Below, in pieces: positions 11,041 through 63,719 of a DNA stretch of 64,000 nucleotides. Position 1 is the first letter of the stretch. The number at the start of each line of letters is the position of its first letter. The notes under the pieces are model-generated. The model was not told the origin of the DNA, searched no databases, and was given only the letters and a program-made list of their open reading frames with translations. The stretch is taken from the NCBI GenBank assembly GCA_044326545.1, contig JBIRBM010000005.1:13457-77456 (forward strand), written 5' to 3'. This stretch comes from Parachlamydiaceae bacterium (GTDB lineage Bacteria; Chlamydiota; Chlamydiia; Chlamydiales; Parachlamydiaceae). The position numbers and the translations under genes are program-made.

Positions 11041-11215
11041 TCGTTCTTTACGATTCACTCTCCTTAGAATCTGTTCAGAATCTTTGATCCGATGATTTGT
11101 TTGCTAAAAGCCGCGATCAGGGATTTATAGGAGCAAAGGATTGTGATCAAAGATTCTGAACAGGTCCTTACGCAACTGAAGTGCGATGTGGATTTAAGCC
11201 AAAGCCTCGGGGAAA
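11041..11215. repeat. Family A repeat split by a family B insertion (A15 halves at 11041-11063 and 11171-11215)
   Basis: Joining the flanks gives ...GATTCACTCTCCTTA|CGCAACTGAAGTGCGATGTGGATTTAAGCCAAAGCCTCGG, which reads as a family A left half. Confidence 0.55.
11064..11170. mobile_element. Family B MITE-like element (B1, 107 bp), nested in a family A copy
   Basis: TTAGAATCTGTTCAGAATCTTTGATCCGATGATTTG...GTGATCAAAGATTCTGAACAGGTCCTTA. The terminal inverted repeats exceed 20 bp, with TTA on both flanks. Confidence 0.8.
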
Positions 11216-15751: not shown

Positions 15752-16070
15752 ACACTCTTTTATAACCTGTTCAGAATCAATCCTGAAACTTATGGGGTGT
15801 TTATTAACAGAGGATTCATTCACTGTTGCATTCTTTCCAACGATTTTATACTATCCCAATATACCATTTTCAAGAAATAAAGCCCCTTTGAATTGAACTC
15901 GGGGAATTTCTTTGAGGATTACGTTATCCGGAGCCGGTACATATACAATTAAAAACCCGATGTTTTCAATGACTCAGATCGCCCAAACTCCGAATTAAAC
16001 ATCCTATTGTTTTGAAAGCACTTCATCTTAAGCTCTCATTTCATAAAAATTAAACTTCTGGCTCTAAATG

Positions 16071-16136
16071 ACTCACCTTACGCGCCGGGAGCGCGATTTG
16101 GCCTGAAACCAAAGCGTCGCGATGCGTCAAGTGAGT
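16071..16136. repeat. Family A palindromic repeat (A2), complete hairpin
   Basis: ACTCACCTTACGCGCCGGGAGCGCGATTTGG...CCAAAGCGTCGCGATGCGTCAAGTGAGT. The outer and inner arms are complementary. Confidence 0.8.
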
Positions 16137-16252: not shown

Positions 16253-17377
16253 ATGATCATTTTAAATCGCCTTTCAATAAAGATCTTGTTGCTTATTACA
16301 CTATCCTTCTTGATTTTAATCGGAATGGGATTATTTGTTTATCATCATTTCATAAAATGGGGCGTATACGATATTGAACATGTCATAGAAGCTGTTGAAA
16401 AGAATGGGCTAAATTTGCGGTTTGCTGCAGATGAGCTTAGAAATGATCCAAAAATTGTTGGGATTGCGATTAAGCAAAATGGGGCAGCATTAGAATTTGC
16501 TTCGTCGGTTCTTAAGAATGACTCAGAAATTGTCAAGCATGCTGTTTCCCAAAATGGTTGGGAGCTTCAGTATGCCTCTGCAAATCTTCAAAATCATCCA
16601 GAGATTGTCAGTCTTGCAATTGAGAAAAATGGATATGCCTTGAAATTTGCTTCTCTTGCTTTGCGTAATGATCCTGACATTGTCAAGTTAGCTGTTAAAA
16701 AAAATGGCTGGGCATTAGAATACGCCTCCGCGGAAAGGCGTGATGACCCTGACATTGTGAAGTTGGCGATTCAACAAGATGGTCTTGCGCTTGAATTTGC
16801 CTCGGATAAATTTAAAAATCATCGCGAAATTGTTACATTAGCCGTTCAGCAAAATGGACTCGCATTAGACTATGCGAGTAAAGAGCTTAAAAGAGATCCG
16901 GAAATTGTGAAATTAGCGCTTAGACAAAATGGACAAGCTTTAGTCGTCGTCCCGGATGAGGATCAAACCCGAGAGATTGTGATGGTTGCGATTGAGCAAG
17001 ATGGAAAAGCTTTGCGTTATGTTGGAAGAGAATTATTAAAAGATCCTGAAATTGTTCGAATCGCCGTGCAAACTTATGGCCAAGCTTTAAAGTTTACGAA
17101 TGATTCAGAGCTTCAAAATGATCGCGAGATTGTGATGTTTGCTGTGCAGCAGGACGGGCGAGCTCTTCGTTTTCTCTTAGATGAACTGCAAAATGATCGC
17201 GAGATTGTCTCGTTGGCCGTTCAACAAAATGGACTGGCTCTTAAATATGCCTCAAACGATTTGAGAAATGACCGTCAAATAGTTAAAATAGCCATTCAAC
17301 AAAATCCCTCAGCGGTTGAATTTGCCTCAGATGAGTTGAGGCGGGATTTAGAAATCGTTCAATTGCTCAATCATTAG
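16253..17377 (+). CDS. Membrane-anchored DUF4116 repeat protein
   Basis: An N-terminal TM segment (ILLLITLSFLILIGMGLFVY) is followed by about 13 tandem 25-aa units of type NDPEIVKLAVQQNGLALEYAS.ELR. Confidence 0.75.
   Translation: MIILNRLSIKILLLITLSFLILIGMGLFVYHHFIKWGVYDIEHVIEAVEKNGLNLRFAADELRNDPKIVGIAIKQNGAALEFASSVLKNDSEIVKHAVSQNGWELQYASANLQNHPEIVSLAIEKNGYALKFASLALRNDPDIVKLAVKKNGWALEYASAERRDDPDIVKLAIQQDGLALEFASDKFKNHREIVTLAVQQNGLALDYASKELKRDPEIVKLALRQNGQALVVVPDEDQTREIVMVAIEQDGKALRYVGRELLKDPEIVRIAVQTYGQALKFTNDSELQNDREIVMFAVQQDGRALRFLLDELQNDREIVSLAVQQNGLALKYASNDLRNDRQIVKIAIQQNPSAVEFASDELRRDLEIVQLLNH
16376..17368 (+). repeat. Tandem 75-bp coding repeats (about 13 units) of the DUF4116 gene
   Basis: The 25-aa periodicity is seen directly in translation: ...NG.AL.[FY]AS..L.ND.EIV..A... 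Units are diverged, not identical. Confidence 0.7.
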
Positions 17378-21798: not shown

Positions 21799-21910
21799 GG
21801 CATGTCATCAATTGATCATAACCCTTTATTCAAGTTCTTTCCAAGCGGGTGGTCACATCGCTTGAGAAATCATCTTGAATAGAGGCGATTAGCAATTGAT
21901 GACACGCCCT
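21797..21910. mobile_element. Family D MITE-like element (D1, 114 bp)
   Basis: AGGGCATGTCATCAATTGATCAT...ATTAGCAATTGATGACACGCCCT. The terminal inverted repeats are about 22 bp. It starts within the GNAT stop codon. Confidence 0.8.
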
Positions 21911-22034
21911 AGAACCAGTTCAACATCTTTGATCCGATGATGTGTGTCCTGTGAAATGCCCGATAAACGCACAAAAATTTTCTCAGAAGAGGTAAATCAC
22001 ACTTCTTCGGACATCTACTCATTCAAGCTCTAAG
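21910..22034. mobile_element. Family B MITE-like element (B4)
   Basis: TAGAACCAGTTCAACATCTTTGATCCGATGATGTG...CGATAAACGCACAAAAATTTTCTC...CATTCAAGCTCTAAG. It abuts D1. Confidence 0.55.
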
Positions 22035-26466: not shown

Positions 26467-27984
26467 ATGACAAAAGAACAACATGCCATTAGTCCTACAA
26501 GAGCAGAAGATTATCCAGAGTGGTACCAACAAGTGATCAAAGCTGCTGATATGGCAGAAAATGCTCCGGTTCGCGGCTGCATGGTGATTAAAGGATGGGG
26601 ATATGGAATTTGGGAAAATATTCAGCGGGCTCTTGATCAAGAAATCAAAGCGACAGGCCATGAAAACGTCTATTTTCCACTGTTTATTCCCTTGAGTTTT
26701 TTTGAAAAGGAAGCGGCGCATGTTGAAGGATTTGCTAAAGAATGCGCCGTCGTCACCCATCATCGCTTAGAAGAAAAGGATGGGCGGTTGATTCCGGCTG
26801 GGGAGTTGGAAGAACCTTTAGTTGTCCGCCCCACATCTGAGACAATTATCGGGGATTCGTTTTCTCGCTGGGTTGAATCATACCGAGACTTGCCCCTTCT
26901 GATTAACCAGTGGGCTAATGTTGTCCGATGGGAAATGCGCCCCCGTATTTTTTTGCGGACGACCGAATTTCTTTGGCAAGAAGGGCACACAGCGCACGCT
27001 ACAGAAGGAGAGGCGATTGAAGAGACATTAAAGATGCTGGAGGTTTATCGTCATGTTGTGGAAGATCTATTGGCAATCCCCGTCATCATGGGCGAAAAAT
27101 CACCCGGAGAACGGTTTCCTGGAGCGGAAAATACCTATACTCTTGAAATGATGATGCAAGATCGAAAAGCTTTGCAATCGTGTACGTCTCATTATTTAGG
27201 TCAGAATTTTGCGAAGGCGTCGAATATCCGTTTTACCAATAAAGAAGGGGTGTTACAGTATGCCTATACGACCTCTTGGGGAATGACGACTCGGTTAATT
27301 GGAAGTTTGATCATGTGCCATGGGGATGATGATGGTTTGCGTTTGCCTCCCCGGATCGCCCCTAAGCAAATTGTGATTATTCCTGTTATTCCAAAACCGG
27401 AGATGGAATCTGATGTCTTGGCTTATGCTGAGCAATTAGCACAGGATCTTAGAGCACAATCATTTTACGGCAAACCGATTGCGGTTCATGTTGATAAACG
27501 AGATCGCAGAGGCGGGGAGAAAAATTGGGAGTGGATCAAAAAAGGGGTTCCTATACGAGTAGAGGTCGGGCCGCGGGATGTTCAGGCAGCAGTCGTGATG
27601 GTTGCAAGGCGTGATCGTCCAATCAAAGAGAAGCAATCTCTTCCTATTCAAGCATTCGTCGATCAAGCTTCTCATCTTTTAGAGGACATTCAGCAGCATT
27701 ATTTTCGGCAGGCGACAGCCTATCGCGATGCCCAAATCTATGAAAATATCGAGACATTTGATCAGCTCAAGAGATTTTTTACGCCGACAAATGAAGAGAA
27801 GCCGGAGATTCATGGGGGATTTGTTCTGGGCAAGTGGTGCGGTGATCCTGCAACAGAGGAGATGCTCAAAGAGCTTAAGGTCACAATTAGATGCCTTCCC
27901 TTGAAGCAAAGTGGAACAAAAGGGCGATGTATTTTAACGGGAAGGGATGCAGTATTAGATGCTATTTTTGCGAAGTCGTATTAA
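26467..27984 (+). CDS. proS: Proline--tRNA ligase (archaeal/eukaryote-like type)
   Basis: 505 aa. Class II motifs (FRDE-like WANVVRWEMRPRIFLRTTEFLWQEGHTAH; SWGMTTR), an anticodon-binding domain, and a C-terminal ProRS-C_1-like tail ending in Y. Confidence 0.92.
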   Translation: MTKEQHAISPTRAEDYPEWYQQVIKAADMAENAPVRGCMVIKGWGYGIWENIQRALDQEIKATGHENVYFPLFIPLSFFEKEAAHVEGFAKECAVVTHHRLEEKDGRLIPAGELEEPLVVRPTSETIIGDSFSRWVESYRDLPLLINQWANVVRWEMRPRIFLRTTEFLWQEGHTAHATEGEAIEETLKMLEVYRHVVEDLLAIPVIMGEKSPGERFPGAENTYTLEMMMQDRKALQSCTSHYLGQNFAKASNIRFTNKEGVLQYAYTTSWGMTTRLIGSLIMCHGDDDGLRLPPRIAPKQIVIIPVIPKPEMESDVLAYAEQLAQDLRAQSFYGKPIAVHVDKRDRRGGEKNWEWIKKGVPIRVEVGPRDVQAAVVMVARRDRPIKEKQSLPIQAFVDQASHLLEDIQQHYFRQATAYRDAQIYENIETFDQLKRFFTPTNEEKPEIHGGFVLGKWCGDPATEEMLKELKVTIRCLPLKQSGTKGRCILTGRDAVLDAIFAKSY

Positions 27985-28040
27985 GAACTGGTTCAGAATC
28001 TTTGATCACGATGCTTTGCTGCTATAAATCGGCTATAAAC
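27985..28040. repeat. Family B left arm plus internal module (B5)
   Basis: GAACTGGTTCAGAATCTTTGATCACGATGCTTTGCTGCTATAAATCGGCTATAAAC, directly after the proS TAA. Confidence 0.7.
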
Positions 28041-28072
28041 TCACCTTACACACTCCCGTGCCTAAGGTGAGT
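28039..28072. repeat. Family A mini-hairpin (A4), fused to a family B arm
   Basis: ACTCACCTTACACACTCCCGTGCCTAAGGTGAGT, followed by TAAGAACC. Confidence 0.7.
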
Positions 28073-33551: not shown

Positions 33552-33567
33552 ATTGTCATGAACCCAC

Positions 33568-33721
33568 TTAAGAACCTGTTTAAAATATTCGATCTGATAA
33601 TTTGTGTGCTAAAATTTGCGATAAACCGGTAAAATTTTTTTGCAATCTTAAAAACTTTGCCGGTTCATCGTGTGTTTATAGCAATAAAGCACTCTGATGA
33701 TAGATTTTAAACAGGCTCTAA
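33568..33721. mobile_element. Family B MITE-like element, long form (B7, about 154 bp)
   Basis: TTAAGAACCTGTTTAAAATATTCGATCTGATAATTTGTGTGCTAAAATTTGCGATAAACCGG...CCGGTTCATCGTGTGTTTATAGCAATAAAGCACTCTGATGATAGATTTTAAACAGGCTCTAA. Confidence 0.75.
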
Positions 33722-34816: not shown

Positions 34817-34857
34817 CTTACATCATGCTAGAGAGATTTTGACATCAAGAGACTCTC

Positions 34858-34906
34858 TAAGAACCTGTTCAGAATCTTTGATCCAATGATTCTAAACAGG
34901 TTCTAA
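34858..34906. mobile_element. Family B short form (B8), with TAA on both flanks
   Basis: TAA|GAACCTGTTCAGAATCTTTGATCCAATGATTCTAAACAGGTTC|TAA. Confidence 0.85.
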
Positions 34907-38394: not shown

Positions 38395-38555
38395 TAATCC
38401 ACCTGTTCCATATCTCCGATATGGATGCTTTCCTGCTACACATGCGCGATACACTCACACAATTTTTCTCCGATAGTCTTTAATATTTCGGAGAATGTTG
38501 CGAGTCTATCTCGCATTTTTCCAAGCAAATCGAATCATCCAAGAGGAGAGGGCCA

Positions 38556-44081: not shown

Positions 44082-44197
44082 TTAACAACTCGTTCAGAAT
44101 CTTGGATGACGATCCTTGGCTGCCATAAATCCGCGATAAACTCACAAAAAATTTTCGCAATATTAAAAACACCCCGTGCGTAAGCTGAGTTCTTAAA
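44082..44197. mobile_element. Family B/A mosaic element (B11)
   Basis: TTAACAACTCGTTCAGAATCTTGGATGACGATCCTTGGCTGCCATAAATCCGCGATAAACTCACAAAAAATTTTCGCAATATTAAAAACACCCCGTGCGTAAGCTGAGTTCTTAA. B left arm with an A-type right arm. Confidence 0.65.
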
Positions 44198-47626: not shown

Positions 47627-47746
47627 CCTAGTGCTCTGTCTCTGTCAAGCTTAAATTTTCGAATTAGACTTGCCTGAAAGCTCTCGTGATTGAGAGATCG
47701 CAAATTCAATCGGAAAATTTAAACTTGACAGAGACAGAGCATTAGG
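47627..47746. mobile_element. Family E palindromic element (120 bp)
   Basis: Arms CCTAGTGCTCTGTCTCTGTCAAGCTTAAATTTTCGAATT and AATTCAATCGGAAAATTTAAACTTGACAGAGACAGAGCATTAGG. Single copy in this window. Confidence 0.7.
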
Positions 47747-47854
47747 GCGTGTCATCAATTGCTCATCGCCTCTATTCAAGATGATTTCTGAAGCGATGCG
47801 ACCACCCGCTTGGAAAGAACTTGAATAAATTTATGATCAATTGATGACACGCCT
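47744..47854. mobile_element. Family D MITE-like element (D2, 111 bp), inverted relative to D1
   Basis: AGGGCGTGTCATCAATTGCTCATCGCCTCTATTCAAGATGATTTCTGAAGCGATGCGACCACCCGCTTGGAAAGAACTTGAATAAA...GATCAATTGATGACACGCCT. This matches the reverse complement of D1 with few differences. Confidence 0.8.
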
Positions 47855-47882
47855 TAAGCTCATCTATTGCTCTTGAGTCATT

Positions 47883-48227
47883 TTAACGGACATTAAAATA
47901 GAACCCTGATCCATCGACTCCTGCACTAGCGCCGTGTGCATTAGGTTCAGCGTAATAATGTTGGCCATAAGGATGGTTGTTGTCGTAAATGTAACCGGCA
48001 TTGTCATCATAGCCGTTGCCGTAGTAACCATTGCTATAGTAGTTGTTGTCGCCGTAGAAATCAGTTCTTCCACCGCCCCACCAACCGCCATTTCCGCCCC
48101 AAGCAGCTCGGCCGTTATCATAAGCTCCCCATCTTCCCGAAGATGCTTCTAACTGATTGTAACCGACTGAAAATAAGCTTGCAAAGAGGCAAGAACCTAA
48201 AATTAAAGACTTAAAAGAACGAGACAT
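47883..48227 (-). CDS. Secreted Gly/Tyr/Asn/Trp-rich low-complexity protein (paralogue 1)
   Basis: Signal peptide MSRSFKSLILGSCLFASLFSVG, then GGNGGWWGGG...YYSNGYYGNGYDDN..., ending GSGFYFNVR. RBS AAGGAGGA upstream (rc of 48230-48237). Confidence 0.6.
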   Translation of the reverse strand: MSRSFKSLILGSCLFASLFSVGYNQLEASSGRWGAYDNGRAAWGGNGGWWGGGRTDFYGDNNYYSNGYYGNGYDDNAGYIYDNNHPYGQHYYAEPNAHGASAGVDGSGFYFNVR

Positions 48228-48752: not shown

Positions 48753-49166
48753 TTACCTCACGTTATAATAAACACCTGAATCAGCATCATAATAGTAGTT
48801 ACTATACGGATATGTATTATCATAGTAGGGAGAAGCCGATCCTTGATAATAGGAAGGAGCTCCATAGACTCCTAGGCCGTAACCTAAACCATAAGCTGCA
48901 CCATAACCTCGATAATAATTGCCTCCCCAATGATTGCGATCCCAATCGCCGTGATGCCCTCCATTCCAGCCGTGTCCGCCACCCCAATCACCATGATGCC
49001 CTCCTCCGCTCCATTCGCTCCCATGTCCGCCACCACCGCCATGTCCGCCACCACCGCCATGTCCACCACCACCGCCACGAGCTGACAGGGTATTAAAATT
49101 GAGCGGTAACAAAAACAGTGCTAACAAAAAAGCACTTGAAATGAGATATTTTAAAGAAAGCGTCAT
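48753..49166 (-). CDS. Secreted Gly/His/Tyr-rich low-complexity protein (paralogue 2)
   Basis: Signal peptide MTLSLKYLISSAFLLALFLLPL, then (GGGGHG)x3 and GGGHHGDWGGGHGWNGGHHGDW, then a Tyr/Gly-rich part ending DSGVYYNVR. RBS AGGAGGG upstream (rc of 49171-49177). Confidence 0.6.
   Translation of the reverse strand: MTLSLKYLISSAFLLALFLLPLNFNTLSARGGGGGHGGGGGHGGGGGHGSEWSGGGHHGDWGGGHGWNGGHHGDWDRNHWGGNYYRGYGAAYGLGYGLGVYGAPSYYQGSASPYYDNTYPYSNYYYDADSGVYYNVR
49021..49074 (-). repeat. Three tandem 18-bp units (CCATGTCCGCCACCACCG on + strand) encoding GGGGHG
   Basis: Units at 49021-49038, 49039-49056 and 49057-49074. The third differs by one base. Confidence 0.85.
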
Positions 49167-49508
49167 AAACCCTCCTTACGAAAAGGTCATAGTGAATAGA
49201 ACCAAGAACACTCCACTCCTTTCCCTCGCCTCCCTTTTCTATCACTTGGTTTCATGATTAAGCTTAAGAGCTTTTTTTCACATTCAAGTGACCTCCCAGG
49301 GGGTGGGGGAGAAGGAGTGGAGATGGAAAATCACAATAGGGCTCATATTAAAAAATATGAAGGCCTTTGTGCTTTTCTATTTGCGAGATCTTTCAAACCC
49401 GCGACACAGATGCTTCATGCAAAATACGTGCCGGCTTATCTGGATTTATGGCTTTTTTCTTTGATGTTTTTCAACGAAAAGGGGATGTAAAAAACAACAG
49501 CACCCCCA

Positions 49509-49605
49509 GAGACTGTCTTAAAGCCTCACTTTACGCAACGAGAGCGCGATTTGGACTGAAGCGAAAACTCGCGCTGTGCTTAAGGTGAGGTTTTAAGACA
49601 GTCTC
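49509..49605. repeat. Family A repeat with extra outer stem (A9)
   Basis: GAGACTGTCTTAAAGCCTCACTTTACGCAACGAGAGCGCGATTTGG...CTCGCGCTGTGCTTAAGGTGAGGTTTTAAGACAGTCTC. Confidence 0.8.
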
Positions 49606-49956
49606 TTAGAACCTCATGACAGATGTTAAGAAGGTTCTTATGTGCACCAAACATCCAGTATAAATCAAATCACTCATACATTAAAACCTCCTCTATTTTT
49701 ATTTTATTTATTTTGATTTAGTTTGTCAAATCATTTTTTTAATTTTTATGTTTTATTTTTTGAGTTTTTAACTCAGCTTAAACGATAAATCACACTCTTC
49801 GTGTGTCAGGTCTGTTAATCAGCATTGCCTCTATAAAATCGTTGTCAAATTCGTAACCTATGTGTTAAAGTTGGCTTATTTTTTAAACAACAAGCGTCGA
49901 TATTAATAAAAATTCAATTTTATTTCTTTGCTTGTTATCATAGACCCATTCGATTA

Positions 49957-50119
49957 AGGGGTGCCTAGACGATAGGATCAGGCTGCTTTGCTGCTATGAA
50001 TTAGCTATAAAAGTGCAAAAAATGTTCAGAATATTAAGTCAATATTGCCGACATTTTTTAGAGCGTTTTTAAGTCATTTTAGCACATACATCAGACGATC
50101 GAATTTTATAGACACCCTC
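49957..50119. repeat. Family B-related mosaic element (B13)
   Basis: GGGGTGCCTAGACGATAGGATCAGGCTGCTTTGCTGCTATGAATTAGCTATAAAAG...CATCAGACGATCGAATTTTATAGACACCCTC. It has the B internal module but different termini. Confidence 0.5.
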
Positions 50120-51631: not shown

Positions 51632-51682
51632 TATAGCGAATTTAAAACAGCAAAGCATGCTGATCATAGATTTTAAATCGCC
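51632..51682. repeat. Family B arm in reverse orientation (B14)
   Basis: The reverse complement reads ATTTAAAATCTATGATCAGCATGCTTTGCTGTTTTAAATTCGCTATAAA. Confidence 0.5.
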
Positions 51683-51691
51683 TTTATCCGT

Positions 51692-51973
51692 TTATTCTTG
51701 AGATGTTAACATTTTAGAGAGGATAAAACCGTTTTCTTTCAAGCAACAGGGATAATAGACATCAACAAACGCTTTATAAAATAATTTGTCTTTTGGATAA
51801 ATCGTCCTTTTGTTTTCAAATTCTTCTTTCATTGGCTCTGGAATGATAATTCCAACGAGATTTAACACTTTCTTTAAATTCTCTTCGTGAAATTGAACTT
51901 TATCATCCGAAATTTCTGCTACGATATCATTTGTTGCTGGGTGACAAAGATGTAGCTGTACGTTATTATGCAT
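51692..51973 (-). CDS. Hypothetical protein
   Basis: 93-aa ORF. No motif recognised. Confidence 0.3.
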   Translation of the reverse strand: MHNNVQLHLCHPATNDIVAEISDDKVQFHEENLKKVLNLVGIIIPEPMKEEFENKRTIYPKDKLFYKAFVDVYYPCCLKENGFILSKMLTSQE

Positions 51974-52201: not shown

Positions 52202-53806
52202 CTATCGATTTAGCTTACCTTTAAGCTTACCTAATATTGAATCAGAAAAATCGACCCATTCTCCGGTTTCATTCCCTAGAGGACCATAAATACAACACAG
52301 CTGTAGACTATTCAATGAAGGAGATGTTCTTGCCTGTTTCATCCGTTGTTGCCGCAGCTTTCCTATTGATATTGAGGGATCCTGTATGACGAGTTGTTTA
52401 GCTGAGATCACAAGTTCAAGGAGTCTTAATATTTGATCAAACTCATCATCCAAGGAAAATTTAGCAGAGTTTTTAAGTGCAATCAATCCTGCATCATAAG
52501 GAGTAATCATCTGCAATGGGTCATTGGAAGGAGCTAATGAAAGACGCATCACTTGCTGCAAAAATTTCGTTCCTCGCTTCATTCGATCAATAGCCGCATC
52601 AGGGATCCCGTGGTCTGCCATGATTTTAGCCTCTTTTTCAAGATCGATTTCTAATAATTGTTCAGCAATTTTATCACTCCACTTTTCAGTCATTTGAGGA
52701 AGAAATAAGTGCTCTAATTTCAATAAATCTGCAGCTGATGATGAAAAGCATAATCCATGATCGATCATAAAAAGATTGAGAGGACCTTCCTCTTTTTCTG
52801 GCACTAAAAGATTTCCTAGATGACGGTCGATATTACCAAAGCGTATATCAAAGATTAAACTTGCCTGGACACTTTCGTTTGATAAGACATTTAATCGATG
52901 AGCCTTTTCTGGATTTAAGCTCAAGACAGATAATCCTACGCAATTTTTTTGAAAAATTTGTGCAGATCCCACCTTCCCATTTAATTCGATATAAGTCGTA
53001 TAAGGAATCGGATAAAGACGTTGCTTGTTTAATAAACAGGCAACTTTTTCTCTTATGGCGCTTTCTCCGGCTCGAATGCCTGCTGCGACTCCTTCTTTTT
53101 CTTCATCTTTGGGTTTAAAAATCAATATTTTTTCAAGATTCTCATTGGTAATAAAATAAGAGCCATTGATTCCTGCACTGGAATTATCTCCTCCTGTTGG
53201 AATGACGGCGTCTGGCCCCAATACTTCGACTCCTTTAACAGCCTCTCCTAGTTGTTTGAAAATAAAGGCGGGATGGTAATCATCCTGTTGATTAGAGGCG
53301 TATTTTTTCAACGGTGTTTCAAATAACAATTTAAAAACATGTTGAATTTCGTTTGAGGTGATGACCATCGGCGAAGATAAGCGAAGATTGAGACGATCAA
53401 AAATGATGTTAGCTATCGATTCTAACGGTTTGTTTGCAATTTCTTCAACGATTTGTTCTCCAAAACAGCTAATCGATAATTCCAGTAAAGAGGAAAAGTC
53501 TTGAGCATTCGTTGAATCGGCTTTTTCTTCCAATTGTGAGGAGGTGATACCAACAGATAAAATAGTGGTGGCGATAACATTTAATTTATCTAAATTTTCA
53601 CTCATTTTTAAAGCTTCATTGTCTGTTGATGTTTTTCTCATTTCCAAATTTACTGTGCTTGGAGATTGAGAATTAAGGAGAATCGCTTCAGTTATAATAT
53701 GGCTATAAGGGTCTACGGAATTGTTTTTTCCAGAATCGGATGTTGAGTCCAAGTGAGAATAGTTACCAGCCATTTGCTCTTGATTAAATGTGCTAATATT
53801 ATTCAT
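52202..53806 (-). CDS. Eukaryotic type II PI4-kinase-like (PI3/PI4-kinase superfamily) protein; candidate effector
   Basis: GSYFITNENLEKILIFKPKDEE, VGSAQIFQKN, FGNIDRHLGNLLV (DRHxxN catalytic loop) and FMIDHGLCF (metal-binding Asp). The N-terminal ~200 aa are Ser/Asn-rich with no signal peptide. ATG 53804-53806 is preferred over GTG 53839. Confidence 0.7.
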   Translation of the reverse strand: MNNISTFNQEQMAGNYSHLDSTSDSGKNNSVDPYSHIITEAILLNSQSPSTVNLEMRKTSTDNEALKMSENLDKLNVIATTILSVGITSSQLEEKADSTNAQDFSSLLELSISCFGEQIVEEIANKPLESIANIIFDRLNLRLSSPMVITSNEIQHVFKLLFETPLKKYASNQQDDYHPAFIFKQLGEAVKGVEVLGPDAVIPTGGDNSSAGINGSYFITNENLEKILIFKPKDEEKEGVAAGIRAGESAIREKVACLLNKQRLYPIPYTTYIELNGKVGSAQIFQKNCVGLSVLSLNPEKAHRLNVLSNESVQASLIFDIRFGNIDRHLGNLLVPEKEEGPLNLFMIDHGLCFSSSAADLLKLEHLFLPQMTEKWSDKIAEQLLEIDLEKEAKIMADHGIPDAAIDRMKRGTKFLQQVMRLSLAPSNDPLQMITPYDAGLIALKNSAKFSLDDEFDQILRLLELVISAKQLVIQDPSISIGKLRQQRMKQARTSPSLNSLQLCCIYGPLGNETGEWVDFSDSILGKLKGKLNR

Positions 53807-53994
53807 AATAAAAACTTTTTTTGTTTTTTGTCTAGTCACAATTTAATTATATTTTTTATTTAATTTATGTTCAATATTTTTGATTGTTGTTTTTAAATAT
53901 AAGAAAATTCATAGAGTAAATTTTTTTATTGTTATTTGAATGTTTATTTCATAATTAAATTAAAAAAAGATCCTGTATCCAAAGTTTGAATGAT

Positions 53995-54092
53995 ATTAGA
54001 CTTCTTCGGAAACTTCATTGACTTGCTAAAACCGCCATTTTTGGCATCTTTTTTGTAAAATTTTTCGACCGTATGCACGCATACGCTCTCAA
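53995..54092. repeat. Family C left half (C2); direct repeat of 54899-54996
   Basis: 98 bp, identical to 54899-54996 except one C/T difference (54076 vs 54980). It lacks the right arm. Confidence 0.85.
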
Positions 54093-54253
54093 AATGGAAT
54101 CCAAGCGATCGATAACAGAAATGGCGGGTAAGAAGAGTTATGAATGGAAGATGTCGACGTAACGTGTCAATAGAGGGGGGGGGACGAGACTTTATTTGGT
54201 TCCAAAAAGGTCGACATCTCTCGATCTGGCCTATTTTGCAAGCTTTGAAAGCC

Positions 54254-54298
54254 GCGAGCGGTTTGGCTTCAGCGGAAATAGCTCTCTTGGCGGCTAAG
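54254..54298. repeat. Family A repeat, inner and right part (A14)
   Basis: GCGAGCGGTTTGGCTTCAGCGGAAATAGCTCTCTTGGCGGCTAAG, abutting a family B arm. Confidence 0.5.
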
Positions 54299-54351
54299 AA
54301 ACTTGTTCAGAATCTTTGATCCCCATCCTTTGCTGCTATAAATCCGCTCGA
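54295..54351. repeat. Family B left arm plus internal module (B15)
   Basis: TAAGAAACTTGTTCAGAATCTTTGATCCCCATCCTTTGCTGCTATAAATCCGCTCGAC. Confidence 0.65.
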
Positions 54352-54372
54352 CATGTAGAAAAACATCTCCTT

Positions 54373-54837
54373 TTATTCCCACACGGGTTTCTTGGCCCCG
54401 TCATAAGGTTTAGCTAATCCCTTTGAAATCAGTTCTTCAGCTAAATCTATTCCATCTATATAGACATCTGCAAGAATGCGGAAATATTTATCTCGTTGCA
54501 TATTCGTCAATTCGATGATGTTGGCATGATTGAGTCGATCAGCAACATAATCTCGAGCTTCAATCGCCATTTTTTTTATCTTTTCTCTTTTATCTGTTAT
54601 CTCCGGTGTGTCGATTTTAGCAATCCGAATGGAAATTTTCTCCCCTATCAAGGGATGAACATCAAAAATATCGACGATGAATGTGTCTCCATCATGAACG
54701 CGGCACACTTTGTCAACCTGCAGTGCCCCATAACAGCGAGCAGCTTCAAGGTTTTCAAAACAGAAGAGGAAATGAAGGGCTAAACATGCTGAATAAAAAG
54801 GCAATGGTTTAATTGAAAAGGGGGAGGTTGTTTTCAT
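54373..54837 (-). CDS. Secreted staphylococcal-nuclease-like (SNase/thermonuclease) protein
   Basis: Signal peptide (PLPFYSACLALHFLFCFENLEA), then VHDGDTF, IRIAKIDTPE and RDKYFRILADVYIDG...GLAKPY, matching SNase catalytic/OB-fold blocks. Confidence 0.8.
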   Translation of the reverse strand: MKTTSPFSIKPLPFYSACLALHFLFCFENLEAARCYGALQVDKVCRVHDGDTFIVDIFDVHPLIGEKISIRIAKIDTPEITDKREKIKKMAIEARDYVADRLNHANIIELTNMQRDKYFRILADVYIDGIDLAEELISKGLAKPYDGAKKPVWE

Positions 54838-54898: not shown

Positions 54899-55063
54899 AT
54901 TAGACTTCTTCGGAAACTTCATTGACTTGCTAAAACCGCCATTTTTGGCATCTTTTTTGTAAAATTTTTCGACCGTATGTACGCATACGCTCTCAACATT
55001 TTCAAAACAATCTGCTCAAAAAGGGCAATTTTTTCAAGCAAAGCAAGTTTCTCAAGAAGTCTA
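54899..55063. mobile_element. Family C MITE-like element, long form (C3, about 163 bp)
   Basis: Left arm TAGACTTCTTCGGAAACTTCATTGACTTGCTAAAA; right arm TTTTCAAGCAAAGCAAGTTTCTCAAGAAGTCTA. Shares the core GCCATTTTTGGCATCTTTTT with C1. Confidence 0.8.
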
Positions 55064-59565: not shown

Positions 59566-61644
59566 ATGTTTATCAATATTTTATGTTATATATGCCTCTT
59601 TATCTCTTCGATGATTTTACCCATTTATCTCTACGCTGTGCCGGTGATAAAGAGTGTGAGTCCCTATTTTGGACCAGAAAGTGGGGCAACCCTTGTGACC
59701 ATCACGGGAAATGGATTCATCGGCACCACAACAATTGGATTTGGAAATAGCATAGTGACTCCCTTGTCTGTCTCTAATAGTGAGATTCAAGTCTACACCC
59801 CACCCCACGTCCCTCAGTCAGTCTCCGTGATTGTAAATACACCGGAATCTAGCTCCGACAGCTCACCTGATTCATATTTTGTATATCAGGGGAATTTAAA
59901 GCTTGCAGGGGCGCATGACTCTGATTATTTATATTTGTTTGATCTCTCTTCTGTTCCTTCAATTCAATCGACATTGAATGTTAGCCTCGGTTTGATTGGT
60001 CTTTCATTTACACCGGATGGATCTCAACTCTATTGCTTACCTGGAGGCAATGATCATGAAGTTGTTGTTGTCGACGTTGCGTCGTCTTCGATCTTGACAC
60101 GGATCTCTTTAGGTGGGCAAGATACTTCAGCCGGAGTTGTTTTTCAGCCAAATGGTTCAACTGCCTATATTTCGAATGAGAACAATAACCAGATACATGT
60201 CGTTAACACCTCTGATTTTTCTTCCCAAATTGTCCCTGTTGGAACTCATCCTTTTCAATTAGCCATCACCCCAAGTGGTGATAAGGTTTTTGTCTCGAAT
60301 AATGGCGATCCTAGTGTTTCAGTTATTGACACAGCGACTTTGAGTGTTACGACAATAACTTTGCCTCCAGGATCAATTCAAGGAGTTCATTCTCTTGCAG
60401 TGAGTCCGGACGGATCTTCTGTTTATGCCGTAGGGGTTGATTCCAATCCCAGCTCAGCATACCTTTATCAAATAGATGTCTCAACGTTCGCGGCAACTTT
60501 AATCCAACAACTCCCTCAAAATGGCGATTATACCTCTGGCTCTTTAGCTCTTTCTTCGAATGGAGAATATGTGTTTATCTCAAATTTAGACACATCTGAA
60601 GTAACAGCTTTTACAACCTCTCCAACACCCGCTTTTTATCGTAATATTGCCTTGACCCCGACTCCCTCCAGTCCTTCTGCCTTAATTGTAGCACCCGATA
60701 ATTTAGGGCTTTATGTGCCGCATTCTCATGCCAATGGTGGAAATGGAGTTATTTCGTATGTCGATCTCTCTGAGTCACAAGAAACAAGTGTTGTCACAAT
60801 TAGGAATTTAGCAGACTTGAACTCTATTTGTACGGCACCAGATGGCCTCACACTCTATTTAGGTTCCGGCTCCGGCGGGACCGGAACAGGAATTATTGAA
60901 CTTTATAATTCTGATCCGGCAAGTGTCTATTCTATCCTTCCAACAGTTCCCACGAAAGCCATGGATCTGAATAACATCGCGCCAGATCAAGCTCCTCTTG
61001 CGAAGTATACCGTAAAGAGGGTCCAAAACAGCGAGGCGGGGATCTACTTATTCGATGGATCGCAATCTTTGTCTCCAATCGGTGAAATTGTGAATTATGA
61101 ATGGAATTTTGGAGATGGTACTGCTCCTCAAACGACAACTTCGCCGCAGATTGTCCACCAATTTACTCAGCCAGGCCGCTATTCAGTCAGCCTTAGGGTG
61201 ACAAATGGTGCCGGAACCTCTACTCAAAAGAAGTATAACAATGCTTCATTTAAAAATAATTACAACTTATATAATCCCGGATTACTCAATAACGGAGGCC
61301 CGACAGCTCTGTTGCAAAAAAATATTGTTGTTGCTTTACCTATTGTAGAAGCTGTTGACCCTCATACAGGGTGTGAAAAAGGGGGGAAAAAAGTTTCAAT
61401 TATAGGTTCAAATTTTATCGGGGCAACAGCCGTCTATTTTGGTCGGCATCTTTCAACGTCTTTTGAAGTCGTTTCCGATTCCATGATCATTGCGTCTGTC
61501 CCTAAAGGAAAAGGTAAGGTAAAAGTTAAGGTTCATTCAGGATTTGGCGTATCGGCCTCGTCGGTCGTCTACACCTATCAATCTTGTGGATATTGTCCGC
61601 AGCCTTATAAACTTCGCAAGCGATGTAAAAACCGCAGTAAGTAG
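59566..61644 (+). CDS. Secreted IPT/TIG - YVTN beta-propeller - PKD - IPT/TIG multidomain protein
   Basis: Signal peptide, then an IPT-like domain (PVIKSVSPYFGPESGATLVTITGNGF). Repeated ...P.G..[LV]Y[VI].N......[VI].V[IV]D blades. PKD motif YEWNFGDGT...GRYSVSLRVTNGAG. A second IPT (PIVEAVDPHTGCEKGGKKVSIIGSNF) and a basic Cys-rich tail. Confidence 0.75.
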   Translation: MFINILCYICLFISSMILPIYLYAVPVIKSVSPYFGPESGATLVTITGNGFIGTTTIGFGNSIVTPLSVSNSEIQVYTPPHVPQSVSVIVNTPESSSDSSPDSYFVYQGNLKLAGAHDSDYLYLFDLSSVPSIQSTLNVSLGLIGLSFTPDGSQLYCLPGGNDHEVVVVDVASSSILTRISLGGQDTSAGVVFQPNGSTAYISNENNNQIHVVNTSDFSSQIVPVGTHPFQLAITPSGDKVFVSNNGDPSVSVIDTATLSVTTITLPPGSIQGVHSLAVSPDGSSVYAVGVDSNPSSAYLYQIDVSTFAATLIQQLPQNGDYTSGSLALSSNGEYVFISNLDTSEVTAFTTSPTPAFYRNIALTPTPSSPSALIVAPDNLGLYVPHSHANGGNGVISYVDLSESQETSVVTIRNLADLNSICTAPDGLTLYLGSGSGGTGTGIIELYNSDPASVYSILPTVPTKAMDLNNIAPDQAPLAKYTVKRVQNSEAGIYLFDGSQSLSPIGEIVNYEWNFGDGTAPQTTTSPQIVHQFTQPGRYSVSLRVTNGAGTSTQKKYNNASFKNNYNLYNPGLLNNGGPTALLQKNIVVALPIVEAVDPHTGCEKGGKKVSIIGSNFIGATAVYFGRHLSTSFEVVSDSMIIASVPKGKGKVKVKVHSGFGVSASSVVYTYQSCGYCPQPYKLRKRCKNRSK

Positions 61645-61679
61645 CAATTGTTGTGGTGAAATGAAACGTGTATTAAAAG

Positions 61680-61740
61680 ACTCACCTTACGCACCAAGAT
61701 TGCGATTTGGGTTGAAGCCAAAGCTCTCTTGGTGCGTAAG
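61680..61740. repeat. Family A repeat, complete (A11)
   Basis: ACTCACCTTACGCACCAAGATTGCGATTTGGGTTGAAGCCAAAGCTCTCTTGGTGCGTAAG, then a family B arm. Confidence 0.8.
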
Positions 61741-62617: not shown

Positions 62618-62774
62618 GGATAAAGAGAGTTGTAAAAGAGCCATCGTATGGCCAACAATTCCCCCTTTATAGGCGAAGAATTTCTAAAAATTCACTGATT
62701 TAAACAAGTTCTATTGCGCTTTTCAAATCGATTGTTTATTGTTTTGCTTCTACGAAAAAATGCTGATTTGCAAA

Positions 62775-63719
62775 ATGAACCCACCCATTTTCCCAAGCAA
62801 AACCAATCATCTAAGATGTCTATTATTTTGTGCGCTGTTGGTCTTTCTATCTGGCTGTGAGACAAAATTTGATTTACCGGACAATCCACCTCCCATTCCT
62901 GAATGCTTGCCTCCTCATCAAATACGTCTGGCTTTGGTTCTTGGGGGAGGGGGAGCTAAAGGAATGTCTCATGTTGGTGTTTTGGCTGAATTTGAAAATG
63001 CTGGGATTCCAATTGATTATATTGTAGGGTGCAGTGCAGGGAGCATTGTTGGCGTTTTATATGCAGATTGCCCTAATGCTCAATATATTAAACAACTTTT
63101 AAGACCTCTTAGAACATGGGACATTTTAGATATTAATATTTGGTATGGCCGCTATGGATTAGTGAGAGGGGGGGCTCTTAGGCGTTTTTTAAAATCCCAT
63201 CTATGGTCTCGCTCCTTCGAAGAGCTTCAAATCCCTTGTTGTGTTGTGGCAACAGATGTGATTGCCGGCGAAATGGTCTGCCTTAATTCGGGGCCCATTA
63301 TTCCTGCTGTCCACGCCTCTTCAGCAGTTCCCTTTGTTTTTTCACCCGTTTATCTTCATCAACGTTGGTTGGTAGATGGAGGGGTTTCTGATCCCGTTCC
63401 TGTCAGGTGTGCAAAAAAGGCTGGTGCTGCGGTGATCGTTGCCGTAGACCTGAGTGGATTATTACCTAAGACATGCCCAACAAATTTATTTGGAGTTGCC
63501 ACACGATCAGCAGAAATTAAATTTCTTCTGCAAAGCGAAAGCTGCCTTCATGGAGCCGATGTGATCATTAAGCCGGAATTAGGGGATATGGGTCTTTTTG
63601 ATGATCGCAATCCGCAAAATGTATATGAAGCTGGAAGTAAAGCTGCTAAGGAGGCGATTCCTCAAATTATAGAAATTTTGTCACAAAAAGGGATTACTTT
63701 CTGCAAAACTTTAGAATAA
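62775..63719 (+). CDS. Patatin-like phospholipase, probable lipoprotein
   Basis: GGGGAKG oxyanion loop, GCSAGS (GxSxG serine), VDGGVSD (catalytic Asp). N-terminal LLVFLSGC lipobox-like sequence. ATG 62775 chosen; earlier starts are possible. Confidence 0.8.
   Translation: MNPPIFPSKTNHLRCLLFCALLVFLSGCETKFDLPDNPPPIPECLPPHQIRLALVLGGGGAKGMSHVGVLAEFENAGIPIDYIVGCSAGSIVGVLYADCPNAQYIKQLLRPLRTWDILDINIWYGRYGLVRGGALRRFLKSHLWSRSFEELQIPCCVVATDVIAGEMVCLNSGPIIPAVHASSAVPFVFSPVYLHQRWLVDGGVSDPVPVRCAKKAGAAVIVAVDLSGLLPKTCPTNLFGVATRSAEIKFLLQSESCLHGADVIIKPELGDMGLFDDRNPQNVYEAGSKAAKEAIPQIIEILSQKGITFCKTLE

Follow-up and report, generated by a model that had tools for sequence, protein, structure and literature searches.

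Several intracellular bacteria secrete phosphatidylinositol (PI) kinases of their own, among them LepB, MavQ, OpiA/LegA5 and Risk1, and these effectors (LegA5 being also AnkK) use type IV or type VI secretion, not type III. To our knowledge, none has been reported to have an obligate small partner protein. An analysis of the Legionella pan-kinome placed LepB, AnkK and MavQ in separate families of likely bacterial origin that cluster away from PI3_PI4_kinase, and found some Legionella proteins that cluster with PI3_PI4_kinase and are possibly "ancient" kinases (PMC9758233). Chlamydia trachomatis relies on host PI4KII-alpha and on phosphatidylinositol 4-phosphate (PI4P) at its inclusion (PMC13573033). 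Here we describe a kinase gene, and the small gene that follows it, in a stretch of 64,000 nucleotides (the window) of contig JBIRBM010000005.1 from a Parachlamydiaceae bacterium. An initial annotation, made from the sequence letters, had read the kinase as a secreted mimic of eukaryotic type II PI 4-kinases (PI4KII) that makes PI4P on the host-derived vacuole.

Our analyses point to a new, sizeable and largely chlamydial branch of predicted bacterial kinases that stands beside the eukaryotic PI4K-gamma group, has accessory domains of its own and is accompanied by an obligate partner protein. A literature search found no paper describing a bacterial effector like the type II PI 4-kinases or the partner protein, and to this extent the earlier suggestion that such a bacterial protein may be undescribed is supported.

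The kinase and its place in the type II PI 4-kinase superfamily

The kinase open reading frame (ORF) runs from a GTG codon (Table 1), and its product is 100% identical to the 534-residue NCBI protein ACH350_03680, which is recorded as "MAG: hypothetical protein [Parachlamydiaceae bacterium]"; in our NCBIfam scan no model reached its cut-off. The true start is probably the ATG at 53806 (Met12), giving 534 residues, because of the length of the NCBI protein, the "MN" with which the homologues begin and a -10-like box ending at 53846. The sigma-70-like promoter match directly upstream of the gene is weak evidence, as promoter-like sites in the kinase region were no more numerous than in shuffled sequences. 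All four motif blocks quoted in the initial annotation are present in this ORF, in the order given there: GSYFITNENLEKILIFKPKDEE at residues 226–247, VGSAQIFQKN at 290–299, FDIRFGNIDRHLGNLLV at 330–346 and FMIDHGLCF at 357–365.

Pfam, profile, profile-to-profile and fold searches agree in placing the predicted protein in the type II PI4-kinase superfamily rather than among PI3K/PI4K enzymes of the class I/III type. The Pfam PI3_PI4_kinase model (PF00454) scored 43.8 bits over residues 254–368 (E 3.9e-11), its gathering cut-off being 27.1; this tag is already attached to the kinase proteins in public data, so the domain match itself is not new. A profile built from an alignment of the kinase and six homologues (alignment A1) found only four distinct matches among PDB sequences, at E ~0.005, all of them PI4KII-alpha or -beta and all at the GSYF...FKPxxEE block; the type II motif set is present in order, as judged from the invariant positions of alignment A1, the hidden Markov model (HMM) alignment of the kinase profile to PDB entries 4HND and 4WTV and the hhalign result that follows. 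With hhalign, alignment A1 and an animal type 2 enzyme (P0161, from the nematode Thelazia) were aligned over 197 columns at a probability of 97% (E 8e-11), with Lys242 opposite the Lys of FKPKDEE, Asp338 opposite the Asp of DRN and Asp360 opposite the Asp of IDHG. In a Foldseek search of the PDB, ranks 1–12 for the kinase model were all PI4K2A or PI4K2B (E 1.1e-10 to 4.5e-7), followed by VPS34 at 2e-5 and by class I PI3Ks, PI4KIII-beta, CtkA, CotH and HipA at 1e-4 or weaker; a viral fold library gave only weak, phage PI3/4K-like matches. The family assignment had been made in the initial annotation together with three proposals for checking it, namely a Pfam search, a structure prediction followed by Foldseek, and an alignment of the FKPK Lys and the DRH and IDH Asp residues with the catalytic residues of the canonical type 2 enzyme, and it withstood all three.

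The kinase also looks catalytically competent rather than like a pseudokinase. Residues F241, K242, P243, E264, D331, N336, D338, R339, N343, I359 and D360 were kept in at least 90% of 149 relatives, which is the ground for regarding the enzyme as likely to be active, and in the close clade of alignment A1 the catalytic Lys, Glu, Asp-x4-Asn and Asp positions were invariant.

The AlphaFold2 model of the kinase, built with 149 sequences, had a mean predicted local distance difference test score (pLDDT) of 86.7 and a predicted template modelling score of 0.81, with residues ~110–545 above 90. The first ~110 residues were modelled at a pLDDT of about 38–63 (below 50 at residues 1–52 and 54–71), are poorly conserved among the homologues of alignment A1, and contain 35% Ser, Thr and Asn, as against 15% in residues 201–545. 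No hydrophobic signal peptide was found in the kinase, the mean hydropathy of the first 30 residues being -0.76 to -1.24, and the earlier statement to that effect was therefore correct. The Ser/Asn/Thr-rich N-terminus had been drawn too long: the composition stated for some 200 residues holds for residues 1 to ~110, and what follows up to ~210 is a confidently modelled, conserved helical domain in which L139, L154, E164, I165 and L197 are invariant in alignment A1. The C-terminal helical domain is likewise conserved within the chlamydial clade (alignment A1). Residues 1 to ~110 are a candidate secretion or targeting region.

The size of the family became apparent in an exhaustive profile search, three word-indexed homologue searches having given 7, 8 and 6 proteins (the third supplied P0161 as a reference). 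Among representatives at 50% identity, the profile matched 2496 at E <=1e-3, 869 at <=1e-10 and 67 at <=1e-30. About 50 of these match the profile over its full length and the remainder match the kinase core alone. The best 150 of the 2496 were looked at, of which a handful carry a taxonomic label. Clustering of the core region gave three main groups: the chlamydial full-length clade, proteins of ~500 residues with a C-terminal kinase, and a group that contains the labelled eukaryotes, namely Peranema, the dinoflagellate Effrenium and the green alga Chromochloris. Two proteins, P0162 (Chromochloris) and P0164, have a ubiquitin domain (PF00240) followed by PI3_PI4_kinase, the domain order that characterizes plant PI4K-gamma, also called "ubiquitin-like domain kinases" (UbDK).

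It is to this gamma-type group, and not to the animal enzymes, that the chlamydial proteins are closest. The A1 profile scored the algal and euglenid gamma-type proteins at 106–150 bits and animal PI4K2 at 29.6 bits, and BLASTP from the kinase gave 86–89 and 39 bits, respectively; in bit score the kinase is thus three to five times as close to algal and protist PI4K-gamma as to animal PI4KII. A rough neighbour-joining tree, without bootstrap and with few labelled tips, joined the chlamydial clade and the second group in one radiation, sister to the gamma-type proteins, with animal PI4K2 as a long outgroup branch. On this rough tree the bacterial kinases appear to form a branch of their own, sister to the eukaryotic PI4K-gamma/UbDK group, so that the gamma kinases and the chlamydial genes may share an origin in transfer between endosymbiont and host, the direction of which the tree leaves undecided. 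The CCPCC palmitoylation insert of PI4KII-alpha and -beta corresponds to gaps of 12 and 7 columns in the hhalign alignment with the chlamydial proteins, and no Cys cluster was found after FKPKDEE in either the window kinase or its homologue P0030. With this insert absent and the nearest relatives not of alpha/beta type, the kinase falls outside the PI4KII-alpha/beta/Lsb6 group, and the close mimicry of host PI4KII proposed earlier does not hold. Its core agrees with PI4K-gamma (DRHLGN at 338–343, no CCPCC, 27% identity over 226 residues to P0162), and Pfam found no ubiquitin domain in it.

The partner gene and the two-gene module

The kinase and its partner constitute a conserved two-gene module, a feature missed by the initial annotation, which had treated the kinase gene by itself; any mechanism must account for the partner. 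In all 11 bacterial loci where the kinase is complete and the flanking sequence long enough (the window, L001, L002, L003, L005, L008, L009, L010, L011, L012 and L027, the last being a plasmid of Neochlamydia sp. S13), a partner homologue lies beside the kinase. Two loci were left out of this count, L004 for its shortened kinase copy and L007 because its contig breaks off 160 nt beyond the gene. The other neighbours differ from locus to locus, and therefore the pair persists as a unit.

A small partner ORF follows the kinase in L001, L002, L003, L005, L008, L009 and L010, some of these kinases being only ~26–30% identical to that of the window. These seven partners and that of the window were used to build a partner HMM. 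Outside the training loci, this HMM recovered the second gene downstream of a 790-residue kinase of the third group (L012, E 5.8e-13), a gene divergent from a 505-residue kinase of the second group (L011, E 1.9e-12) and, in Neochlamydia sp. S13, an amoeba symbiont available in culture, a gene convergent with the kinase of plasmid pS13 (E 8.4e-11; pair accessions WP_042243537.1 and WP_042243534.1). The two genes thus occur in co-directional, divergent and convergent arrangements. In the window, the hairpin scan found no terminator-like hairpin between kinase and partner, and one directly after the partner stop codon, which fits a single transcript for both genes.

Partner proteins are ~80–115 residues long (183 in L009). 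Their invariant positions, F28, I42, Y59, F65, A68, F69, Y73, L78 and G82, are hydrophobic or aromatic apart from one Gly, which suggests a binding protein and not an enzyme; such a protein might help in export as a chaperone, inhibit the kinase or confer immunity to it, or serve as its regulatory subunit. The partner had no match in Pfam, NCBIfam, PADLOC or PDB sequences, and a single-sequence model of low confidence (pLDDT 69) matched no known fold. A detached ubiquitin-like (UBL) domain was considered and rejected, as hhalign of the partner against P0162 gave a probability of 0.2%. A metagenome scan with the partner pattern returned nothing, and scans with the kinase patterns gave short contigs, mostly distant and of high GC, that had no partner.

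Two of the loci differ from the others in ways that are recorded here as separate observations. At L012 (5001–8138), the 790-residue kinase has a long N-terminal extension and is followed by a 103-residue ORF and then by the 85-residue partner homologue; transketolase, GGDEF, NUDIX and beta-CASP RNase genes lie on the same contig, which bears on whether the module is restricted to host-associated bacteria. At L004 (3785–4732, from the Parachlamydiales metagenome-assembled genome (MAG) SW_28), the kinase is cut to 315 residues just past the IDNG motif and has no partner after it; it looks like a decaying copy.

Host direction, substrate and genomic context

The window comes from a Parachlamydiaceae MAG, as indicated by the NCBI protein match, and encodes a TLC ATP/ADP translocase, a DUF4116-repeat protein and a patatin-like phospholipase, all of which we count in favor of an effector. 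The ten loci of the full-length clade (the window, L001–L005, L008–L010 and L027) all fit Chlamydiae, and four of them are named as such in their records (the NCBI protein of the window, L003, L004 and the L027 plasmid). The kinase–partner pair has a different neighbourhood in each genome, and in L002 its neighbours include Fic, DUF4116, RHS and CesT genes. Neochlamydia S13 has a type III secretion system and lacks a type IV system (PMC3991601). The unstructured N-terminus without a Sec signal peptide is a property that the window kinase has in common with type III effectors. From the sequence data and the model, we consider the kinase to be probably directed at the host.

The explanation that we favor, at a probability of roughly 0.55, is an active kinase of the type II PI4K superfamily that works with an obligate partner and is directed at the host. 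The kinase would be exported from the obligate intracellular bacterium into the cytosol of its host, an amoeba, the likely route being a type III system acting through the unstructured N-terminus, and would there use ATP to phosphorylate a host target. Lys242 and Glu264 would act as a pair, Asp338 would be the catalytic base, and Asn343 and Asp360 would bind Mg. The partner would bind the kinase core and either keep the kinase inactive or export-competent within the bacterium or act as a regulatory subunit. The more specific proposal, that this is a two-component effector module and the first bacterial type II kinase (of PI4KII/PI4K-gamma type) delivered to a eukaryotic host, we regard as doubtful.

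Several observations count against a host-directed type II kinase. The TM-score of the kinase model to PI4K2A, up to 0.58 over the target, is moderate. We infer secretion, which is plausible, from the disordered N-terminal ~110 residues, the genome of an obligate intracellular bacterium and the variable genomic position, and among the window ORFs scanned no type III apparatus genes were seen. The isoelectric points of the partner homologues range from 4.8 to 9.7, unlike those of the uniformly acidic class I type III chaperones, and Pfam gave no CesT match; both weaken the idea that the partner is a classical acidic chaperone of that kind. The retention of the partner across distant bacterial clades, L011 and L012 among them, could also be explained by an action inside the bacterium or by a toxin–immunity pair. 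Two further points, the higher profile scores of the gamma-type proteins and the biochemistry of the plant enzymes described below, bear on the lipid part.

The choice between a lipid and a protein substrate is finely balanced. Phosphatidylinositol, which would be turned into PI4P at the inclusion or another host membrane, and Ser/Thr of proteins, as for plant PI4K-gamma, each appear to us to fall somewhat short of an even chance, and other substrates take the remainder. The first reading, in which a secreted PI 4-kinase imitates host PI4KII and synthesizes PI4P at the inclusion membrane, would have precedents in the PI kinases secreted by other intracellular bacteria, and it agrees with the intact catalytic residues and with PI4K2A/2B being the best solved-structure matches both by fold and by sequence. 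The importance of PI4P and host PI4KII-alpha for the chlamydial inclusion (PMC13573033) is also in its favor. However, the kinase lacks the CCPCC loop, no membrane-binding element was identified in it, and it is closer to the gamma/UbDK branch. In addition, a bacterium that has no PI would suffer no harm from a PI kinase, so that an obligate partner has no explanation on this reading unless it serves as a chaperone or cofactor. Wheat TaPI4KII-gamma and Arabidopsis UbDK-gamma4 and UbDK-gamma7 autophosphorylate or phosphorylate proteins, and their PI-kinase activity was undetectable (PMC3741686); a report on rice OsPI4K-gamma7 describes phosphorylation of a transcription factor. Because these plant members of the gamma branch are protein kinases without detectable lipid-kinase activity, the step "makes PI4P" in the initial annotation is unsafe, and it stands as one of two roughly equal readings. 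The other reading is that of an atypical Ser/Thr protein kinase which is secreted, resembles plant PI4K-gamma/UbDK and phosphorylates host proteins; the partner would then be an inhibitor or immunity protein within the bacterium, or a regulatory subunit. It agrees with the absence of the palmitoylation loop and with the nearest labelled eukaryotes, which carry ubiquitin and PI3_PI4_kinase domains and outscore animal PI4KII by a wide margin. Enzymes able to harm their producer typically come with a closely linked small partner, and the protein kinases CtkA, HipA and CotH are among the fold matches (E ~2e-4). These matches nevertheless fall short of those to PI4K2A/2B by about six orders of magnitude, the kinase has no UBL domain, the partner is not UBL-like, and the activity would be carried over from plant enzymes to the bacterial branch. 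Both readings, taken as complete explanations, are tentative and to the same degree.

An action of kinase and partner inside the bacterium, as a signalling or toxin–antitoxin-like pair of the kind formed by HipA/HipB or by the actinobacterial SCO1664 family, seems improbable to us. The presence of the partner in distant clades, for example on the L012 contig with its transketolase, GGDEF and NUDIX genes, and the lack of a signal peptide are what such a pair would predict, and there are weak profile matches to TIGR03843 (SCO1664 family), but these reach 15.6 bits against a cut-off of 172 bits. PADLOC gave no match for the window kinase or partner and marginal matches for distant homologues (E 0.002–0.02), Pfam found no HipA_C in the kinase, and the partner has no helix-turn-helix (HTH) or known antitoxin domain. 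That all ten full-length-clade loci fit Chlamydiae also counts against such a pair, and a long disordered N-terminus and a variable genomic position are typical of effectors. An identity as HipA or as a defence system was rejected for lack of HipA_C (Pfam) and PADLOC support. We consider it very unlikely that the protein is a pseudokinase or a scaffold whose role is to bind host factors without catalysing a reaction. Kinase folds are often reused by bacterial effectors, and the accessory helical domains here are large, and yet every canonical catalytic position is kept in at least 90% of the 149 relatives and is invariant in the close clade.

The window also contains other possible host-interaction genes (Table 1). 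The initial annotation had placed the kinase in a repeat-bounded accessory stretch next to a secreted nuclease. Its accessory character agrees with the neighbourhood of the pair varying by genome, but the boundaries did not hold up, and a repeat-bounded island was rejected because the repeat families are dispersed over the whole window and do not mark boundaries. A 101-nt direct repeat (53995–54095 and 54899–54999, 98% identical) brackets the staphylococcal-nuclease homologue and not the kinase, and a third, partial copy of 61 nt lies at 4260–4320 (82–85% identity to the flanking copies); the arrangement may have arisen when the nuclease gene was recently duplicated or inserted. At least 12 families of dispersed intergenic repeats of 40–65 nt, with 2–6 copies each, occur over all 64 kb. 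They are 61–88% identical to their reference copy, several have a GTTCAGAATCTTTGATC core, the copies near the kinase locus lie between genes, and they look like repetitive extragenic palindromic or miniature inverted-repeat transposable elements (REP/MITE type). The G+C content dips to 0.348 at 52–54 kb, as against ~0.36–0.45 in the remaining window.

Two small ORFs on the reverse strand (47883–48227 and 48753–49166) encode proteins with a hydrophobic, signal-like N-terminus and a low-complexity body rich in Gly, Tyr, His and Asn; their C-terminal ends are similar (...GFYFNVR and ...GVYYNVR), and they have no Pfam match. Imperfect intergenic inverted repeats were observed at 47627–47746, 47742–47857 and 49508–49606, with arms of 47 nt at 85%, 25 nt at 92% and 30 nt at 90% complementarity.

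Table 1. Positions of the kinase, its predicted parts, the partner gene and other features in the window, and of partner homologues in other loci (positions in the locus named).
Feature	Sequence	Position	Strand	Basis or remark
Kinase ORF, 545 residues from GTG	Window	52202..53839	-	ORF translation
Sigma-70-like promoter match, TTGAAC-17-TATAAT, directly upstream of kinase	Window	53846..53874	-	Pattern match, weak
Disordered Ser/Thr/Asn-rich N-terminal region, residues 1 to ~110	Window	53510..53839	-	pLDDT, composition, alignment
N-terminal helical domain, residues ~111–210, specific to chlamydial full-length clade	Window	53210..53509	-	pLDDT >90, helices 109–211
Kinase core, type II PI4K type, residues ~211–400	Window	52640..53209	-	Pfam, profile, hhalign, Foldseek; also contains Glu264 and GSxQ block (291–294)
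G-loop GSYF, residues 226–229	Window	within 52640..53209	-	
Lys242	Window	53114–53116	-	
Catalytic loop, Asp338..Asn343	Window	52811–52828	-	
Putative metal-binding Asp360	Window	52760–52762	-	
C-terminal all-helical domain, residues ~401–545	Window	52205..52639	-	pLDDT >90; invariant positions up to K538
Partner gene, 93-residue orphan protein, 228 nt downstream of kinase	Window	51692..51973	-	Homologues beside kinase elsewhere
Terminator-like hairpin directly after partner stop codon	Window	51648..51662	-	Hairpin scan
Staphylococcal-nuclease homologue, hydrophobic N-terminus, kinase neighbour	Window	54373–54837	-	
Protein with nine DUF4116 repeats, possible host-interaction gene	Window	16253–17377	+	
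TIG/PKD/beta-propeller protein, possible host-interaction gene	Window	59566–61644	+	
Patatin-like phospholipase, possible host-interaction gene	Window	62739–63719	+	
Dispersed repeat copies	Window	27981–28044, 38395–38458, 44082–44145, 49953–50016, 54295–54358		
Dispersed repeat copies	Window	2838–2888, 16065–16115, 49518–49568, 61674–61724		
Dispersed repeat copies	Window	11057–11105, 21902–21950, 33562–33610, 34851–34899		
Partner homologue	L001	4482–4778		
Partner homologue	L002	9311–9592		
Partner homologue	L003	5373–5681		
Partner homologue	L005	6683–6967		
Partner homologue	L008	5823–6167		
Partner homologue	L009	5674–6225		
Partner homologue	L010	5828–6070		
Partner homologue	L011	3376–3657	-	
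Partner homologue	L012	7881–8138		
Partner homologue	L027	5160–5501	-	

Comparison with known kinases

A chlamydia-encoded enzyme of the PI4KII superfamily would be either a direct route to PI4P or a novel host-directed protein kinase. In the former case, environmental chlamydiae would be able to produce PI4P on the vacuole themselves, with no need to recruit host PI4KII; in the latter, a gamma-type protein kinase would act on host targets. The obligate orphan partner presents a protein–protein mechanism to explain, and the copy on a plasmid of the cultured Neochlamydia S13 makes experiments feasible. The place of the bacterial branch beside PI4K-gamma/UbDK could also help to settle whether that branch holds lipid kinases at all.

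LepB, MavQ and LegA5/AnkK of Legionella, OpiA of Francisella and Risk1 of Rickettsia represent the same concept, a PI-kinase-like enzyme of the bacterium's own that is used to remodel the vacuole. The supplements of the Legionella pan-kinome study contained no match to the kinase family described here, and the known PI-kinase effectors were absent from the top 50 fold matches, although which of them have PDB entries was not checked. The HipA- and CtkA-type bacterial kinases are distantly PI3/4-kinase-like (fold E ~2e-4 to 7e-4), have a small cognate partner or a secreted role, and have in common with the window module the two-gene logic of a kinase with a small adjacent protein. Unlike the HipA type, the window kinase has no HipA_C and its partner no HTH, and the fold match falls short of that to PI4KII by about six orders of magnitude.

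Human, animal and yeast PI4KII-alpha/beta and Lsb6 (PDB 4HNE, 4WTV) have the same atypical kinase fold as the model of the window kinase and the same order of motifs, GSxGSYF, FKPxxEE, GSxQxF, DRxxxN, IDxG and LPQ; sequence identity is ~15–18% when the structures are aligned and 25% across 189 residues by BLASTP. The window kinase differs from them in its lack of the CCPCC insert, in its N- and C-terminal helical domains and in its bacterial partner gene. The closest labelled eukaryotic relatives are the plant, algal and protist PI4K-gamma proteins, with 27–29% identity over ~230 residues. Unlike these, the window kinase has no ubiquitin-like domain, belongs to a separate bacterial clade and is presumably exported, whereas the plant members work as protein kinases within the plant cell; what it has in common with them is the DRHxGN loop, the G(E/x)(G/S)AxRE helix after FKPxDEE and a core without CCPCC.

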